A stretch of 64,000 bases of DNA from Escherichia coli 042 (lineage in GTDB: Bacteria; Pseudomonadota; Gammaproteobacteria; Enterobacterales; Enterobacteriaceae), in the NCBI RefSeq assembly GCF_000027125.1, contig NC_017626.1; one strand, written 5' to 3'. Positions 1,646 through 64,000 of the stretch are shown one piece after another (position 1 is the first letter of the stretch; every line of letters starts with the position of its first letter). Under the pieces are notes generated by a model that searched no databases, had not been told where the DNA came from, and saw only the letters and a list, made by a program, of their open reading frames with translations. Made by a program: the position numbers and the translations under genes.

Positions 1646-3641
<1,996 letters not shown>

Positions 3642-3834
3642 TATTTTCTCTTTTCTGTTAATTATTGAGAATAATTATTACTTCACTCAATAAGCTGCGG
3701 ATATAACATTCTGAACCGCAGCTATTTGTGAATCCTTTCACAGTTTAAATTTCCCCACGCGCATAGCCTTAATATCAGCACGCAATATTTATTTAGCGTT
3801 CGCCTTAATTACTCATAGCATTAAGGAAGATCAC

Positions 3835-5073
3835 ATGCCGCAACAAAATTATCTGGATGAACTCACTCCGGCTTTTACGCCTTTACTGGCGATTAAAGAA
3901 GCCTCTCGCTGCTTATTATGTCATGACGCTCCCTGTAGTCAGGCTTGCCCGGCACAGACCGATCCGGGGAAATTTATTCGCTCAATCTACTTTCGTAATT
4001 TTAAAGGCGCTGCCGAGACAATTCGTGAAAATAATGCCCTCGGTGCCGTTTGTGCCAGAGTGTGCCCGACGGAGAAATTATGCCAAAGCGGTTGTACCCG
4101 TGCCGGTGTTGATACTCCCATTGATATCGGTCGCTTACAGCGTTTTGTTACTGATTTTGAACAACAAACTGGGATGGAAATTTATCAACCCGGTACTAAA
4201 ACGCTCGGCAAAGTCGCCATTATTGGCGCGGGTCCTGCCGGATTGCAGGCCAGTGTGACACTGACAAACCAGGGTTATGACGTCACGATCTATGAGAAAG
4301 AAGCACAAGCCGGTGGCTGGTTGCGTAACGGCATTCCGCAATTCCGGTTACCGCAATCAGTACTGGATGCAGAAATCGCCCGTATTGAAAAAATGGGCGT
4401 GACCATTAAGTGCAATAACGAAATCGGTAAAACACTCACCCTGGAGCAGCTGAAAGCGGAAAACCGCGCGGTACTGGTCACCGTGGGGTTATCTAGCGGT
4501 TCCGGGCTACCACTGTTTGAGCATAGCGACGTTGAGATTGCCGTCGACTTCTTGCAACGTGCACGACAGGCGCAAGGCGATATCAGCATTCCACAAAGCG
4601 CATTAATTATCGGCGGCGGTGATGTCGCGATGGACGTAGCCAGCACGCTGAAAGTTCTCGGCTGTCAGGCAGTAACTTGCGTAGCGCGTGAAGAGTTAGA
4701 TGAGTTTCCGGCAAGCGAAAAAGAGTTTGCCAGCGCCCGGGAGCTGGGCGTTTCGATCATTGATGGATTCACGCCAGTAGCCGTGGAAGGCAATAAAGTC
4801 ACGTTTAAGCATGTACGGTTACCGGGCGAACTGACGATGGCGGCAGATAAAATTATTCTCGCCGTCGGTCAGCATGCCAGACTGGATGCCTTTGCGGAGT
4901 TAGAGCCGCAGCGTAACACCATCAATACACAAAATTACCAGACCCGCGACCCGCAAGTCTTTGCTGCTGGCGATATTGTTGAGGGTGACAAAACCGTGGT
5001 CTATGCAGTGAAAACCGGGAAAGAAGCCGCCGGGGCGATTCATCATTATTTAGAGGGAGCTTGCTCATGTTAA
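3835..5073 (+). CDS. preT: NAD-dependent dihydropyrimidine dehydrogenase subunit PreT
   Basis: 412-aa ORF with N-terminal Cys-rich Fe-S motifs and GAGPAG dinucleotide-binding motif; overlaps preA start. Confidence 0.9.
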
Positions 5074-6302
5074 CGAAAGATCTTTCTATTACCTTTTGCG
5101 GCGTGAAGTTTCCCAACCCGTTCTGCCTCTCTTCTTCGCCGGTAGGCAACTGCTATGAGATGTGTGCCAAAGCCTACGACACAGGCTGGGGTGGCGTGGT
5201 GTTTAAAACGATCGGCTTTTTTATCGCCAACGAAGTCTCGCCGCGTTTTGATCATCTGGTGAAAGAAGATACCGGTTTTATCGGCTTCAAAAATATGGAG
5301 CAAATTGCTGAACATCCGTTGGAAGAGAATCTGGCCGCCCTGCGTCGGCTGAAAGAAGATTACCCAGACAAAGTATTGATCGCCTCGATCATGGGGGAAA
5401 ATGAGCAGCAGTGGGAAGATCTGGCGCGTATGGTGCAAGAAGCTGGCGCGGATATGATCGAGTGTAACTTCTCCTGTCCGCAAATGACTTCTCATGCGAT
5501 GGGTAGCGATGTCGGGCAAAGCCCGGAGCTGGTCGAATAATATTGTCGGGCAGTGAAACGCGGTTCTACGCTGCCGATGCTGGCGAAGATGACGCCGAAT
5601 ATCGGTGATATGTGCGAAGTGGCGCTGGCTGCGAAGCGCGGCGGCGCAGATGGCATTGCGGCGATTAACACCGTTAAATCCATCACCAATATCGATCTTA
5701 ATCAGAAAATTGGTATGCCGATCGTTAACGGTAAATCGAGTATTTCCGGATATTCCGGTAAAGCGGTAAAACCGATCGCCCTGCGCTTTATTCAGCAAAT
5801 GCGCACCCATCCAGAACTGCGCGATTTCCCGATCAGCGGTATCGGCGGCATTGAAACCTGGGAAGATGCGGCGGAGTTTTTATTGCTCGGCGCAGCAACG
5901 TTACAGGTGACCACCGGCATTATGCAGTACGGCTATCGGATAGTGGAAGATATGGCGAGCGGGTTGTCACATTATCTTGCCGATCAGGGGTTTGATTCGT
6001 TGCAGGAAATGGTAGGTCTGGCGAATCACAATATTGTTCCGGCGGAAGATTTAGACCGCAGTTATATTGTCTATCCCCATATCAATCTTGATAAATGTGT
6101 TGGCTGTGGACGCTGTTATATTTCCTGTTACGACGGCGGTCACCAGGCGATGGAATGGAGCGAGAAAACCCGTACACCGCATTGTAATACCGAGAAATGT
6201 GTTGGTTGCCTGCTTTGTGGTCACGTCTGCCCGGTGGGTTGTATTGATCTCGGAGAAGTGAAGTTTAAGAAGGGAGAGAAAGAACACCCGGTAACGTTGT
6301 AA
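5067..6302 (+). pseudogene. preA: dihydropyrimidine dehydrogenase subunit PreA, reading frame interrupted by in-frame TAA at 5538..5540
   Basis: ORFs 5061..5540 and 5553..6302 are in the same frame and together read ...[22 protein letters not shown]...; C-terminal part has CxxCxxCxxxCP ferredoxin motifs. Confidence 0.8.
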
Positions 6303-6306
6303 AACC

Positions 6307-6356
6307 AGCGACGCATCCGGCATTTGGCACCGATTGCCGGATGCGACGCATCCGGC
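6307..6356. repeat. REP-like palindromic elements (GCCGGATGCG type)
   Basis: Inverted copies of CGCATCCGGC / GCCGGATGCGACGCATCCGGC between preA and mglC. Confidence 0.55.
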
Positions 6357-6372
6357 AATACCCACAATCACA

Positions 6373-7383
6373 TCACTTCTTACGCGCGTATTTCAGTGAA
6401 TCCAGCGCTACGGCGAAGATAATAATCGCCCCTTTGATGATGTACTGCCAGTATGGGTTTACGCCGATGTACGTCAGGCCATAGTTGATGACGGTAAAAA
6501 TAATCACCCCGGTCACCACACCAATCACCGTCCCTACACCACCGCTGAACGATACACCGCCCACCACACACGCCGCGATAGCATCCAGCTCATACATAAA
6601 GCCGAGGTTGTTGGTGGCAGAGCCGATACGTCCGGCTTCTAACATCCCGCCAAAGGCATAGAACACACCAGACAACGCGTAGATCATCAGCAGATTCAGG
6701 CCGACGTTGACACCAGATACTTTTGCCGCTTCCGGGTTACCGCCAATGGCAAAAATGTTCTTACCGAAGCGGGTTTTGTTCCACAACACCCAGACGAACG
6801 CCACCGCAATCAACGCGTAGAAGGTGATGTAAGAGAGACGGAAACTCCCCAGCGCGACAAAGCCCTGAGCAAAGGTAGAGAAGCCACTGTCAAAACCAGA
6901 AATTGGCGACGCCCCGACAAAGTCGTAATAGAGCGAGTTGATGCCATAGACGATGATCATCGTGCCGAGCGTGGTAATGAAAGGCGTCACGTTGAGATAA
7001 GCGATAATCAGGCCGTTAATCAAACCGATCACCGCACCAATGGCACAGACAATCAGAATAACCAGCGCAATCGGCATCGTCGCCATTTCCGGGAACACTT
7101 TGTTGGCGTTATCCATGGACTGCAATAATGTCGCTGCCACCACTGCCGCCAGCCCTACTTGACGCCCCGCAGAAAGGTCGGTCCCCTGGGTGACAATTAA
7201 CCCTGCCACACCAAGCGCGATAATAATACGCACCGATGACTGGGTGAGAATATTACTTAAGTTCAACAGACTTAAAAATGTAGGATCCTGGAAAATAATA
7301 ATTGCCAGCAAAACTAAAAGAACGACGTAAATACCGCCCTCTTTCAGGTAAGTAAGAAAACTTTTCTTATTTAACGCACTCAT
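6373..7383 (-). CDS. mglC: galactose/methyl-galactoside ABC transporter permease
   Basis: 336-aa polytopic membrane ORF; synteny with mglA and mglB. Confidence 0.9.
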   Translation of the reverse strand: MSALNKKSFLTYLKEGGIYVVLLVLLAIIIFQDPTFLSLLNLSNILTQSSVRIIIALGVAGLIVTQGTDLSAGRQVGLAAVVAATLLQSMDNANKVFPEMATMPIALVILIVCAIGAVIGLINGLIIAYLNVTPFITTLGTMIIVYGINSLYYDFVGASPISGFDSGFSTFAQGFVALGSFRLSYITFYALIAVAFVWVLWNKTRFGKNIFAIGGNPEAAKVSGVNVGLNLLMIYALSGVFYAFGGMLEAGRIGSATNNLGFMYELDAIAACVVGGVSFSGGVGTVIGVVTGVIIFTVINYGLTYIGVNPYWQYIIKGAIIIFAVALDSLKYARKK

Positions 7384-7398
7384 GGGAAGCCCCTAATC

Positions 7399-8919
7399 TT
7401 AAAGGTGCAAAGACGCAAGACGCAGAATTTCGTTTTGCGTTGTTGTTTTTGTATCGACAATTCCGGAAACGAGACCATTGCTCATGACCAGAATACGGTC
7501 TGTTATCCCTAACAACTCAGGCATTTCAGAGGAGATAATAATAATCCCTTTGCCTTTCTTCGCCAGTTCGGCAATTAACTGATAGATCTCAAACTTCGCT
7601 CCGACATCAATACCGCGCGTCGGTTCATCGAGCATTAATATTTCTGGTTGCGTTAGTAGCCAGCGACCAATAATCACCTTTTGCTGATTACCGCCGGAGA
7701 GCGAACCAATTTGCGTCCGATGCCCCGGTGTTTTTACCCGCATCGAATCAATCACCCACTGGGTATCGCTTTTCATCCGCGAGTTATCCAGTAAACCAAC
7801 TTTATTTTTGTAGTTGCGAATATTGGAAATTAACGAGTTAAAACCGATATCCAGATAGGCATAAATTCCCGTTGAGCGGCGCTCTTCAGTTACCAGTGCA
7901 AATCCGTGGTTTATGGCTTCGTTGGCATTATGGTTATTGATCTTTTTGCCGTGCAACGTAATGGTGCCAGCCGATTTCTCGCGAATACCAAATAACGTCT
8001 CAACAATATCGGTACGTTTCGCCCCCACCAGACCGGCAATACCGAGGATCTCCCCTTTATGCAGATCAAACGAGACATCGCGAATCGACGGCTGGCGCAG
8101 CGACGTCAGGTTACGCACTTCAAGAATCACTTCGCCCGGCTTGTTTTCTTTGTCAGGGAAACGCTGGTTAAGAGAACGCCCAACCATCATGGCGATGATC
8201 TTGTCCATCGTCAGTCCTGCCAGCGGTTCAGTGGCGATCCACTGACCGTCGCGCAATACGGTAACTTCATCACATAACTGGAAGATTTCTTCCATTTTAT
8301 GTGAGATATAAACAATACCGCAGCCGCGCTCTTTTAATTTACGAATAATAGTGAACAGATGATTGACCTCTTTTTCGGTTAACGAAGAAGTCGGTTCATC
8401 CATAATCACAATTTTCGCGTTATAGGAAAACGCTTTGGCGATTTCGATCATCTGCATTTGCGAAACGGATAATGTGCCGACGCGCGCACGCGGATCGATA
8501 TCAATATCCAGTTCATCAAAAATCGCTTTGGTTTCGCGGTACATTTTGTCCTGATCGACAAACATGCCTTTGGTGGGATATCGCCCCAGCCACATGTTAT
8601 CCATCACCGAACGTTGTAATACCAGGTTTAACTCCTGGTGTACCATCGAAATACCATTTTCCAGCGCTTCTTTGGCAGAATGGAAATCGATCTCTTTACC
8701 CTGGAATAAAATGGTGCCGGAGTCTTTTTGATAAATACCAAACAGGCATTTTAATAATGTTGATTTTCCTGCGCCGTTTTCCCCCATTAATGCATGGATA
8801 GAATGTGGCCGGACTTTTAAATTAACGTTATCAAGTGCCTTAACACCAGGAAAAGACTTGTTGATACCGCTCATTTCCAACAAGTATTCACCTGATGACG
8901 GAGTCGTTGAGCTGACCAT
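7399..8919 (-). CDS. mglA: galactose/methyl-galactoside ABC transporter ATP-binding protein (duplicated ABC domains)
   Basis: 506-aa ORF with two Walker A motifs (GENGAGKST; second degenerate) and LSGG signatures. Confidence 0.9.
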
Positions 8920-8979
8920 ATAATTTTACCTTGTTGGTCATACAATAAGGGCGCAATAAACTATTGCGCCCGTTCAGTC

Positions 8980-9978
8980 TTATTTCTTGCTGAATTCAGC
9001 CAGGTTATCTTTGTCTACGCCAACATAAGGTACGCGGACCACTTTGTTGTCGATTTTCCAGTTGGTGCCATCAGCCGCACCTTTGCCATCGGCCAGGTTT
9101 TTCGCCAGATCAAAGGTCGCTTTAGCCTGGTTGTTAGCATCGTTCAGTACGGTGCCCGCCAGTGCACCGGATTTCACCAGCGCCAGCGCTTCTGGCAGCG
9201 CATCGACGCCAAACACCGGAATGCTGGACTTGTTGTGTGCTTTCAGAGCTTCTACCGCGCCCATTGCCATCGCGTCGTTGTTGGCGATAACCACCTCGAT
9301 TTTGTTGGCGTTCGGGCCAGACAGCCAGGCGTCCATCTTATCTTTCGCCTGAGCGGTATCCCACATAGCGGTATCTAACTGTAACTGTTCAGTTTTAATG
9401 CCTTTGTCGTTCAATTCTTTAATCACGTAAGTGGTACGTGCTTCTGCATCCGGATGCCCCGGCTCACCTTTCAGCAGTACGAATTGAATCTGACCGTCTT
9501 TGTTCAGATCCCAACCCTGATTCGCCGCCCAGTGTTTAGCAATCAAATCGCCCTGAATAATGCCGGACTCTTTGGAGTCAGTGCCAACGTAGTAGGCTTT
9601 GTCGTAGCTATCCAGCGCCTTACGAGACGGTTCTTTGTTGAAGAAAACCACCGGCACGTTTTGCCCACGCGCTTTCTCAATCACCGTACCCGCAGCTGCC
9701 GGGTCAACCAGGTTGATTGCCAGTGCCTTCACCCCTTTCGCCAGCAATACGTCGATCTGATCGTTCTGCTTGGACTGGTCATTCTGAGAATCATTCATCA
9801 GCAGCTGAACATCTGGCGCGGCTTTCGCATCTTGCTCAATAGCCTTGCGCACTACAGACATAAAGTTATCGTCGTACTTATAGATTGTTACACCAATGCG
9901 AGTATCAGCAGCGTGTGCAGCGGCACCGAATAACATGCTGGCCATCACAGCAGATAGGGTTAACACCTTCTTATTCAT
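8980..9978 (-). CDS. mglB: D-galactose/D-glucose periplasmic binding protein
   Basis: 332-aa ORF with signal peptide [23 protein letters not shown]. Confidence 0.9.
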
Positions 9979-22416: not shown

Positions 22417-22422
22417 CAATGT

Positions 22423-22512
22423 TGCCGGATGCGACGCTTAACGCGTCTTATCCGGCCTACAAATCAGGCAATTTCAGCAAGTAAATGTAGGCCTGATAAG
22501 CTTGCGCATCAG
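22423..22512. repeat. REP-like palindromic elements
   Basis: GCCGGATGCGACGCTTAACGCGTCTTATCCGGCCTAC and a second GCCTGATAAGC...GCATCAGGC unit between convergent yeiI and nupX. Confidence 0.55.
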
Positions 22513-22522
22513 GCAATGACAC

Positions 22523-41983: not shown

Positions 41984-43819
41984 TTGCAGATGATTGTGCG
42001 CATACTGCTGCTGTTTATCGCTCTGTTCACCTTTGGTGCGCAGGCGCAGGCTATCAAGGAAAGCTATGCCTTTGCCGTGCTGGGCGAACCCCGGTACGCG
42101 TTTAATTTCAACCATTTTGATTATGTGAACCCCGCCGCGCCAAAAGGGGGGCAGATAACGTTGTCAGCCCTCGGCACCTTCGATAATTTCAACCGCTATG
42201 CACTGCGCGGCAACCCGGGCGCACGCACCGAGCAGTTGTACGACACGCTATTTACGACTTCCGATGACGAGCCAGGCAGTTATTACCCGCTGATTGCCGA
42301 AAGCGCACGCTATGCTGACGATTATTCCTGGGTGGAGGTCGCTATTAATCCGCGCGCCCGTTTTCATGATGGTTCGCCCATTACTGCCCGCGATGTAGAG
42401 TTTACTTTTCAAAAATTTATGACCGAAGGCGTGCCGCAATTTCGTCTGGTCTACAAAGGCACCACCGTCAAAGCCATTGCACCATTAACCGTGCGTATTG
42501 AGTTAGCGAAACCCGGCAAAGAAGATATGCTGAGCCTGTTTTCGCTGCCGGTCTTTCCAGAAAAGTACTGGAAGGATCACAAACTTAGCGACCCGCTCGC
42601 CACGCCTCCGCTTGCCAGTGGTCCGTACCGAATTACGTCCTGGAAAATGGGGCAAAATATTGTCTATTCCCGCGTGAAAGATTACTGGGCAGCAAACTTA
42701 CCGGTAAACCGTGGACGCTGGAATTTCGACACCATTCGCTACGATTATTACCTCGATGATAATGTCGCCTTTGAAGCGTTTAAAGCCGGTGCCTTTGATT
42801 TGCGTATGGAAAACGACGCCAAAAACTGGGCCACGCGCTATACCGGTAAAAATTTCGATAAAAAATACATCATCAAAGATGAGCAAAAGAACGAATCAGC
42901 CCAGGATACGCGCTGGCTGGCGTTTAATATCCAACGTCCGGTATTCAGCGATCGCCGGGTGCGGGAAGCAATCACTCTCGCCTTTGACTTTGAATGGATG
43001 AACAAGGCGTTGTTTTACAATGCCTGGAGTCGCACGAACAGTTATTTTCAGAATACCGAATATGCGGCCAGAAATTACCCCGACGCCGCGGAGCTGGTGC
43101 TTCTGGCACCAATGAAAAAAGATCTACCGCCAGAAGTCTTCACGCAAATCTACCAGCCGCCGGTATCCAAAGGCGATGGTTACGATCGTGACAACCTGTT
43201 AAAAGCCGACAAACTTCTCAACGAAGCGGGCTGGGTGCTGAAGGGTCAGCAACGCGTAAATGCCACAACGGGTCAGCCGCTCAGCTTTGAGTTATTGCTA
43301 CCTTCGAGCAGCAATAGTCAGTGGGTATTACCGTTCCAGCACAGCCTGCAACGGCTGGGTATCAACATGGACATTCGCAAGGTGGATAACTCGCAAATCA
43401 CCAACCGCATGCGCAGTCGCGACTATGACATGATGCCGCGCGTATGGCGGGCGATGCCGTGGCCCAGTTCCGATTTACAGATTTCCTGGTCATCGGAATA
43501 TATCAACTCCACTTATAATGCCCCCGGCGTGCAAAGTGCGGTTATCGACTCGCTGATCAACCAAATTATTGCCGCGCAGGGAAATAAAGAAAAATTACTG
43601 CCGTTGGGGCGAGCACTGGATCGCGTATTAACGTGGAATTATTACATGCTGCCAATGTGGTATATGGCGGAAGACCGTCTCGCCTGGTGGGATAAATTCT
43701 CTCAACCCGCAGTGCGCCCTGTTTACAGCCTGGGTATCGATACCTGGTGGTATGACGTTAATAAAGCGGCCAAACTGCCTCAGCCAGACAACAGGGAGAA
43801 TAGATGGGCGCTTATCTGA
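41984..43819 (+). CDS. yejA: periplasmic oligopeptide-binding protein of ABC transporter (microcin C uptake)
   Basis: about 604-611-aa ORF with signal peptide; first gene of yejABEF. Confidence 0.85.
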
Positions 43820-62517: not shown

Positions 62518-62798
62518 GTATGATTCACGACAGCAAAGCGGAAGATCTGGAGGCTAAAGGCCTGTACCGGAGAGCGGCAGCCCGATGGGCTGAGGTCATG
62601 CAACAGGTGAACACCGATAAGGAGCGCGAACAGGCAGTAAAGCGTCGCGCGAAATGTATCCACAAGGCAGCACGTTCGCCCGTCATGCTGGATAATTTCG
62701 GGGGCTTGAGAGAGGCAGCAAACCGCACACAGGCGGATATGGGGATAGAAATCGCAAAATCTGTCTGGCGGAACTACCAGACAGACAAGGTTTTATAG
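62514..62798 (+). CDS. PerC-family transcriptional regulator-like protein
   Basis: 94-aa ORF; AEDLEAKGLYRRAAARWAEVM resembles the PerC family signature; start overlaps preceding stop. Confidence 0.5.
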   Translation: MSMIHDSKAEDLEAKGLYRRAAARWAEVMQQVNTDKEREQAVKRRAKCIHKAARSPVMLDNFGGLREAANRTQADMGIEIAKSVWRNYQTDKVL

Positions 62799-62863
62799 TG
62801 GCAGTTCTGCATTATTTTTTGTGTTATTGAGTTGTAGAGCGTTTCAGGAGTTTTTTGAATCAC

Positions 62864-63064
62864 ATGAACGTTTCGCTGGTGGATATTCTTGACAAGTTGC
62901 AGCCAGGCCGACGCGTGCCAGCTCGCCGCAGTGCCTGGCATCTTCCGTACATCGTCTTTCTCGAACGGCGCGGAAACGATTTGATTGCGTTGAATCCCGT
63001 CACAAAGGATAGCGTTACGCTATCTCCTGAGAGTCTACTAGCCACAGACTGGGAGTACTGCTAA
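62864..63064 (+). CDS. hypothetical small protein
   Basis: 66-aa ORF from ATG 62864 (ORF track begins at TTG 62855); AGGAG upstream. Confidence 0.4.
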   Translation: MNVSLVDILDKLQPGRRVPARRSAWHLPYIVFLERRGNDLIALNPVTKDSVTLSPESLLATDWEYC

Positions 63065-63131
63065 ACACAAACGCATCGAGGGTGCTGGCGTGTTGCCAGC
63101 CCCACCCCCTCCGAAATGATCCCCCAAAAAG

Positions 63132-63349
63132 TGCAAAATGATCCCCCATTAACGAACAGAAAACAAACAAAGAGCAACAAATAATCATTATTTACAATTC
63201 TTGACAAAAACACCCCCTATTTATAACCCTACCAAATTTAAAATTACATCTACAAAACAATAAGTTACAAAATCAGCAACGGATCATTTCGGAAAAAACG
63301 GTTAGTCCCTTTTTCGAAAAGGGATCATTTTGTTGCTTAAACTCATATG
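63132..63349. promoter_or_regulatory. four GATC-containing 9-bp repeats (AAATGATCC) bracketing a promoter-like element
   Basis: Direct copies at 63132 and 63154 (22-bp spacing); inverted copies GGATCATTT at 63300 and 63341; second inverted copy abuts palindrome CCCTTTTtcgAAAAGGG. Confidence 0.5.
63220..63246 (+). promoter_or_regulatory. putative sigma70 promoter
   Basis: TTGACA (63220..63225), 15-bp spacer, TATAAC (63241..63246); no ORF downstream. Confidence 0.35.
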
Positions 63350-63597
63350 CGGATTACATATCAATACGCTAGTGATAGCCGTTCTGGAATGCCACAGAAA
63401 CGCGCTGTAATCGATTCTGGCGCAATTAGCTGTGCTAGGTAATGATTTACCTATCTGGGGATGTTGCGCACGTCTGGATTGCGTTACCACCGAAGATTGT
63501 GCGCATATGGTGGCTGTTACGGTGGCCTCCCGACAACGCAAAATTGCGGCGGCACAGTCGGTTTACCGCGCTAACACGGCTTGATTCACTCGCTCGA

Positions 63598-63742
63598 CTT
63601 GTCCCACCTCCCCCCCCAACTTGTCCCAAAACAGCCTAGACTTGTCCCACCTTACCTAATTTATTTCTAACAAAATCAATTTGTTAGGTGCTGGTGGGAC
63701 AGGTGGGACGGGTGGGACGGGTGGTTTTGTATATATATATAC
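63598..63742. repeat. second iteron cluster with the same core as the primase-proximal ori, plus a (TA)6 tract
   Basis: CTTGTCCCA x3 at 63598, 63620, 63641 (21-22-bp spacing); AT-rich spacer; tandem GGTGGGAC x3 at 63693, 63702, 63711 (9-bp period); GTATATATATATAC at 63729. Confidence 0.55.
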
Positions 63743-64000
63743 GAAAAATTGCATTCAGGAGGGGGGCGAAATTCCTGCAATCCATTACTTATGGAACTGT
63801 CCGCCCCGTCAAATTTTTACGCCCGCGCAATTAAAAAAATGCGTCACGCAGGTGGGCATGATGCCGATATGCTTGTCGGGTTCAGCTTTTTAAGGCGGCT
63901 GTAGATGTCAGGTTATCCGTGCTCATCCACCAGCCAGCTTCATAGCGGATAGCCGGAAAATGGTAACGGTTAAAGCTGTACATTTTTGCAGCAAATCATT

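Follow-up and report, generated by a model that had tools for sequence, protein, structure and literature searches.

The preA gene in the window, i.e., the entire stretch of 64,000 nucleotides (64 kb) analyzed here, is interrupted by an in-frame TAA at codon 158. The locus is preA by descent, yet it is a pseudogene. We consider it very probable that the interruption is a recent natural nonsense mutation (AAA to TAA, Lys158 to stop; K158*) in the gene for the FMN/4Fe-4S subunit of PreT-PreA, and that it has been inherited by one Escherichia coli lineage.

Position of the premature stop and identity of the gene

The locus shows the gene order cdd-sanA-yeiS-preT-preA, with mglCAB convergent downstream. 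The following features, all on the plus strand, are referred to below:

3835..5073, + strand: preT, intact, 412 aa, FAD/NAD and N-terminal Fe-S subunit (ORF; Pfam Fer4_20 and Pyr_redox_2; annotation in relatives)
5067..6302, + strand: preA pseudogene, a 411-codon frame broken once, at codon 158 (translation; alignment to intact alleles)
5067..5540, + strand: expected product, a 157-aa, 17.5 kDa N-terminal half-barrel fragment (translation; Pfam; DPD alignment)
5510..5552, + strand: 9-bp direct repeats TGTCGGGCA at 5510–5518 and 5544–5552, bracketing the stop (sequence; comparison with UMEA 3140-1)
5538..5540, + strand: premature TAA, ancestral AAA = Lys158, next base T at 5541 (sequence; aligned intact alleles)
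5541..6302, + strand: remnant past the stop, second half of the FMN barrel and 2x[4Fe-4S] ferredoxin domain (Pfam; DPD alignment)

Translation of 5067–6302 (ATG 5067, stop TAA 6300–6302) yields 411 codons with one internal stop at codon 158, where positions 5532–5546 read GTC GAA TAA TAT TGT and the TAA occupies 5538–5540 in the preA frame. An earlier note on this DNA had proposed that an in-frame TAA splits preA, which the translation bears out; the two same-frame ORFs that it named (5061–5540 and 5553–6302) and the joined peptide that it quoted agree exactly with the ORF list. The first of these ORFs does lie in the preA frame, but its start at TTG 5061 has to give way to ATG 5067, the start annotated in relatives, which overlaps the preT stop (5071–5073) by 7 nt. 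Past the stop, the ORF predicted by gene callers has 241 aa (5577–6302), while the mechanically derived ORF starts at GTG 5553.

The assignment to preA, downstream of preT, stands on gene order, alignment, and domains. The locus is situated between yeiS and mglC, overlaps preT, and is 99.8% identical over 1,235 nt to the intact annotated preA of CFSAN018748, which shares the gene order. Three differences separate the two alleles: CCA/CCG at column 300 and TCG/TCA at column 672, both synonymous, and AAA/TAA at column 472. When the lysine is restored, the conceptually repaired protein comprises an FMN barrel (PF01180, DHO_dh, residues 6–304, E = 1e-37) followed by a 4Fe-4S dicluster domain (PF14697, Fer4_21, residues 338–395, E = 5e-15), both identified with Pfam. 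The neighboring preT is full length without an internal stop and differs from that of strain ECA64 by one amino acid.

Instead of the 411 uninterrupted codons of a preA orthologue, the frame thus has a stop at a codon that is a sense codon in intact orthologues. Codon 158 is AAA in all three intact alleles aligned, and Lys158 is present in 12 of the 12 full-length PreA proteins sampled, including those of E. albertii and Escherichia sp. E4742. Since AAA is ancestral in the intact alleles, a single A-to-T change at 5538 is enough to create the stop, as the earlier note had stated; its AAA was correct, while the coordinates given for it, 5536–5538, are to be replaced by 5538–5540.

Distribution and genomic background of the allele

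The exact 157-aa product was found in public assemblies from NCBI, ENA, and Logan, where it is encoded on 60 contigs and listed in 98 index blocks; the two numbers are totals of contigs and index blocks, not of independent samples. It is deposited as VED14968.1, VED34848.1, and UniRef100_A0A447XUZ6. The carriers, all labelled E. coli, include two NCTC assemblies and one draft genome. The draft contig JAWCXE010000010.1 (GCA_036599305.1) carries the TAA and is 100% identical to positions 2067–9302 of the window (7.2 kb). The NCTC complete assembly LR134246.1 likewise carries the TAA and is 99.95% identical to the window, the differences being three to four single-base gaps. These gaps fall in the region matching 6373–8919 of the window, where mglC (286 + 43 aa) and mglA, unlike preA, are split in the annotation. 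As both genes are intact in the draft assembly and in the window, the splits are probably long-read homopolymer errors, not real pseudogenes, and they may explain why the lineage is absent from the RefSeq complete genomes.

Of 5,426 RefSeq complete E. coli genomes scanned, 5,413 contain the locus, and the TAA-bearing 41-mer at 5519–5559 occurs in none of the 5,413. The complete genomes closest to this 41-mer, including all with the same flanking haplotype, differ from it by exactly one base and have preA annotated as intact. A synthetic TAA-bearing 41-mer on the other common haplotype (GTA for GTC at codon 156) had no exact match in the complete genomes either, so that the 41-mer searches cover two local haplotypes (GTC and GTA at codon 156). 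The TAA-bearing 29-mer GGAGCTGGTCGAATAATATTGTCGGGCAG was absent from the GTDB species-representative genomes. The full-length preA locus is kept in >99% of the complete genomes, and the K158* allele is rare among E. coli. That reference preA alleles might also have TAA at this codon, which the earlier note had named as evidence against its reading, was seen in 0 of the 5,413 complete genomes. In the literature, a search for the carriers and for UMEA 3140-1 (LR134246, GCA_900636275, JAWCXE, GCA_036599305) found no mention of them, and no description of natural preA nonsense or pseudogene alleles was found in the literature searched.

The earlier note had left open whether the stop is a strain-specific pseudogene, a sequencing error, or an engineered lesion. 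Recurrence of the stop in independent assemblies excludes the last two, and the first is better worded as a lineage-specific pseudogene, as the same allele is carried by many independent public assemblies. An error in sequencing or assembly, with AAA in the true genome, is extremely improbable. The change does sit in an ancestral A5 run (GAAAAATA), which is an error-prone context, and single-base gaps are found in the nearby mglC and mglA of LR134246.1, which was assembled from long reads and belongs to the same lineage; homopolymer errors, however, add or drop bases instead of replacing A by T, the 60 contigs that encode the identical truncated product stem from several archives and sequencing technologies, and the NCTC assembly and the independent draft concur at 5538. 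To a lesion that was engineered or selected in the laboratory in a constructed strain, we assign a practically negligible probability. Nothing specific points to it beyond the clean one-base change, which could have the look of a knockout, whereas the alignment shows no scar, cassette, or second-site change, the chromosome is a wild-type mosaic ~1% away from every complete genome, and the allele is common to culture-collection and survey assemblies. The same A-to-T change across archives and sequencing platforms therefore rules out both a sequencing error and a laboratory construct.

The natural nonsense mutation in turn appears to be young. As only two synonymous changes separate the gene from its nearest intact allele, preT is intact, and the rest of the preA frame is undamaged, the loss must be recent. 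When the ~49 genes of the window were compared with those of strain ECA64, an internal stop was found in preA alone, and neither IS elements nor other broken genes were found in the first 55 kb of the window. With a sole broken gene among ~49, the window does not derive from a genome in general decay. The best complete genome is no more than 99.1% identical to the window over its first 25 kb; this is simply a lineage without a representative among the RefSeq complete genomes. That the window might come from Shigella, an idea prompted by the lack of a better match, was rejected, since every carrier is labelled E. coli and the first 55 kb are free of IS elements and of further broken genes.

Several further observations concern the window outside preA. 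Between positions 1 and 55800, identity to the best complete genome, ECA64, switches gene by gene: yohJK, sanA, yeiS, folE to yeiH, fruKB, rplY, and yejL are 100% identical, whereas nupX, rihB, psuG, radD, and mglC reach 96–98%. The best match of preT-preA lies in other genomes, i.e., swine ETEC O139:H1-like strains (99.6–99.8%). The alternating identities conform to the usual recombination mosaic, judging from these comparisons. Relative to ECA64, yejA (41990–43819) has a 1-nt deletion within 43779–43819 (CTGCCGTCAGCC in ECA64, CTGCCTCAGCC here), which shifts the last eight codons and replaces the ECA64 tail ...KLPSARQQGE*; the protein has 609 aa vs. 604, and its end overlaps the yejB start. 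The yeiI-nupX intergenic region (22417–22522) measures 106 bp vs. 55 bp in ECA64, and the additional 51 bp contain a second REP-like palindrome (GCCTGATAAGC...GCATCAGGC). Synteny with ECA64 (yejM, tRNA-Pro, yejO, narP, ccm) breaks just after tRNA-Pro(GGG) at 55837–55913, at an integrative element with the following features:

55837..64000: region with tRNA-Pro(GGG) and the integrative element after it
56120..57364: tyrosine integrase
58036..58632: Ash-family protein
59145..61283: DUF927 protein
61520..61945: SSB
61981..62517: ProQ/FinO protein
62514..62798: PerC

At least 80% of this element is covered in only 52 of the 5,426 complete genomes; it resembles a phage satellite or a small genomic island with proL as its insertion site.

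Other preA lesions were also found. A −1 frameshift in the A5 run GAAAAATA (codons 157–159), whose product ends in ...ELVENIVGQ (STK42949.1), occurs on 27 contigs, a stop at codon 154 on 34 contigs, and a stop at codon 159 on 10 contigs. These truncated forms were drawn from the same 90% protein cluster, which groups fragments of similar length, so that the visible lesions are biased towards this part of preA. In UMEA 3140-1, which is only 96–97% identical to the window and hence unrelated, preA has a 34-bp deletion with the TGTCGGGCA repeats as endpoints, i.e., a slippage-type knockout. These lesions demonstrate a sporadic and independent loss of preA in E. coli. With regard to the part past the stop, an exact look-up of the 249-aa C-terminal ORF with the GTG start found no match, and the 241-aa product from the gene callers' ATG 5577 is present on 110 contigs. 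The latter count was rejected as a proxy for the K158* allele, since UMEA 3140-1 gives the same product by a different lesion.

Predicted loss of the enzyme and its consequences

The stop removes 254 of 411 residues. On the Pfam DHO_dh profile (291 positions), the part before the stop covers positions 2–144 and the part after it 161–291, which places the cut at ~145, the midpoint of the barrel; the Fer4_21 domain (338–395) is lost entirely. The earlier note was therefore right about the complete loss of the 4Fe-4S domain, whereas "most" of the barrel overstates the damage, about half of it (~145–291 of 291) being removed by the measure of this profile. The fragment retains the NFSCPQ active-site loop, in which N134 and C137 correspond to N668 and C671 of pig DPD, and ends in the helix after this loop. 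Aligned with pig DPD, the residues beyond the stop include K174 in LAKMTPN (K709) and N201/T202 in AINTV (N736/T737). Likewise beyond the stop are the phosphate-binding loop SGIGGI and all eight cysteines of the two clusters (residues 344–350 and 378–389). The roles of the DPD-equivalent residues (C671 as the catalytic one, etc.) follow from the known pig DPD structures.

Under the nonsense mutation, translation would end at the UAA, leaving a 157-aa half-barrel fragment with the catalytic Cys loop. Such a fragment would be without the FMN- and pyrimidine-binding residues of strands 5–8 and without both Fe-S clusters that carry electrons from PreT. The active heterotetramer could then not form, and uracil, thymine, and 5-fluorouracil would not be reduced. 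Since 254 of 411 residues, among them the equivalents of K709, N736, and T737, are missing together with both Fe-S clusters, we infer a loss of function of preA. The enzyme loss predicted by the earlier note is in line with these domains and residues, and carrier strains are probably unable to reduce uracil or to inactivate 5-fluorouracil.

A preA that is still functional, either by readthrough of the UAA or by two polypeptides (the C-terminal half being restarted at GTG 5553 or ATG 5577) that reassemble as a split barrel, is very improbable. The cut lies almost exactly at the barrel midpoint according to Pfam, some split (beta-alpha)8 barrels can reassemble, and an in-frame GTG follows 12 nt past the stop, at a spacing that permits bacterial termination-reinitiation. 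The intact frame past the stop fits a recent event and still allows for continued use, but it is expected anyway after a recent mutation. Against readthrough, the UAA is followed by U (5541), and UAA-U is the most efficient termination context of E. coli; natural recoding of UAA is not known in this organism. Furthermore, no suppressor tRNA is encoded in the 64-kb window, whose sole tRNA is tRNA-Pro(GGG), folding of the 121 nt around and past the stop is not more stable than that of shuffled sequence (z = −0.21), and no Shine–Dalgarno-like sequence precedes GTG 5553 or ATG 5577. The stop is not conserved either, being absent from the 5,413 complete genomes and the GTDB species representatives, and its absence from 5,413 other genomes means that it is not a conserved recoding site. 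None of the hallmarks of programmed readthrough or recoding, i.e., a conserved stop, a leaky context, and a stimulatory RNA structure, was therefore found here. The specific variant in which both halves of PreA are made, the C-terminal one by termination-reinitiation at GTG 5553, and reassemble into a split half-barrel enzyme that keeps its dehydrogenase activity has, on these sequence features, a very small chance of being correct; if true, it would represent a naturally divided (beta-alpha)8 barrel with two (beta-alpha)4 halves.

A null allele of preA can be expected to have few consequences for the cell. As preA is the last gene in the operon and mglC is convergent, there is no polar effect on other genes. 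Purified PreTA is described in the literature as a heterotetramer that contains flavins and Fe-S clusters and reduces uracil, thymine, and 5-fluorouracil. The remaining enzymes of the reductive pyrimidine pathway are absent from E. coli, and no physiological role of PreTA has been established (PMC7332683). In E. coli BW25113, conversion of 5-fluorouracil to DHFU needs both preT and preA, and growth of the deletion strains is comparable (10.1101/820084). With no downstream pathway enzymes and no growth cost of deletion, a null is expected to be nearly neutral. K158* is most likely such a near-neutral allele kept by drift, the enzyme being dispensable in E. coli. That the loss of preA was instead positively selected is unlikely. 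Independent lesions near the same region in other lineages could be read in this way; they were found through clustering by fragment length, though, which is an ascertainment effect, and sporadic nulls are expected for any dispensable gene across very many public assemblies. In addition, >99% of complete genomes keep the full-length locus, and deletion strains had no growth advantage in published assays (10.1101/820084).

K158* is thus an ordinary, lineage-shared, and presumably null allele of a known, dispensable gene, and as routine decay of such a gene in one clone it carries little weight for basic biology. Its relevance is a practical one. Inactivation of 5-fluorouracil in E. coli is due to the preTA operon, the abundance of which in gut metagenomes serves as a marker of this capacity (10.1101/820084, PMC11185696). 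Point-null alleles like K158* and the lesions in other lineages would be counted as preTA-positive by read-count or HMM methods, although the strain should be inactive. Carrier strains could furthermore be used as natural preTA-null controls in 5-fluorouracil inactivation assays.

Comparison with known PreA and DPD proteins

PreA of E. coli K-12 (YeiA) is described as a subunit of the NAD-dependent dihydropyrimidine dehydrogenase PreT-PreA (Hidese et al. 2011, J Bacteriol 193:989, as reported in PMC7332683; Spanogiannopoulos et al., 10.1101/820084). It is encoded at the same yeiS-preT-preA locus, convergent with mglC and with the same 7-nt preT/preA overlap, and has the same domain order (DHO_dh barrel and Fer4_21). 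Full-length E. coli PreA proteins are 97–99% identical to the PreA of the window. The difference to K-12 lies in codon 158, which is a stop here, with the first 157 of 411 residues as the expected product. The other natural preA nulls resemble K158* in that the same gene is hit within ~10 codons of the stop at codon 158, whereas they differ from it in mechanism and arose in unrelated backgrounds, which makes them independent events.

PreA is also related to domains IV–V of pig and human DPD (DPYD; PDB 1gt8 and 1h7w): PreA residues 5–314 align to 532–848 and residues 311–393 to 920–1002 (E = 1e-66), and the catalytic NxSCP loop is conserved. DPD is a single NADPH-using polypeptide, whereas the FMN half of PreTA is a separate subunit, and it is this subunit that is truncated here. 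Truncating variants of human DPYD lead to DPD deficiency and 5-fluorouracil toxicity, and they provide a direct functional analogy to the truncation of preA.
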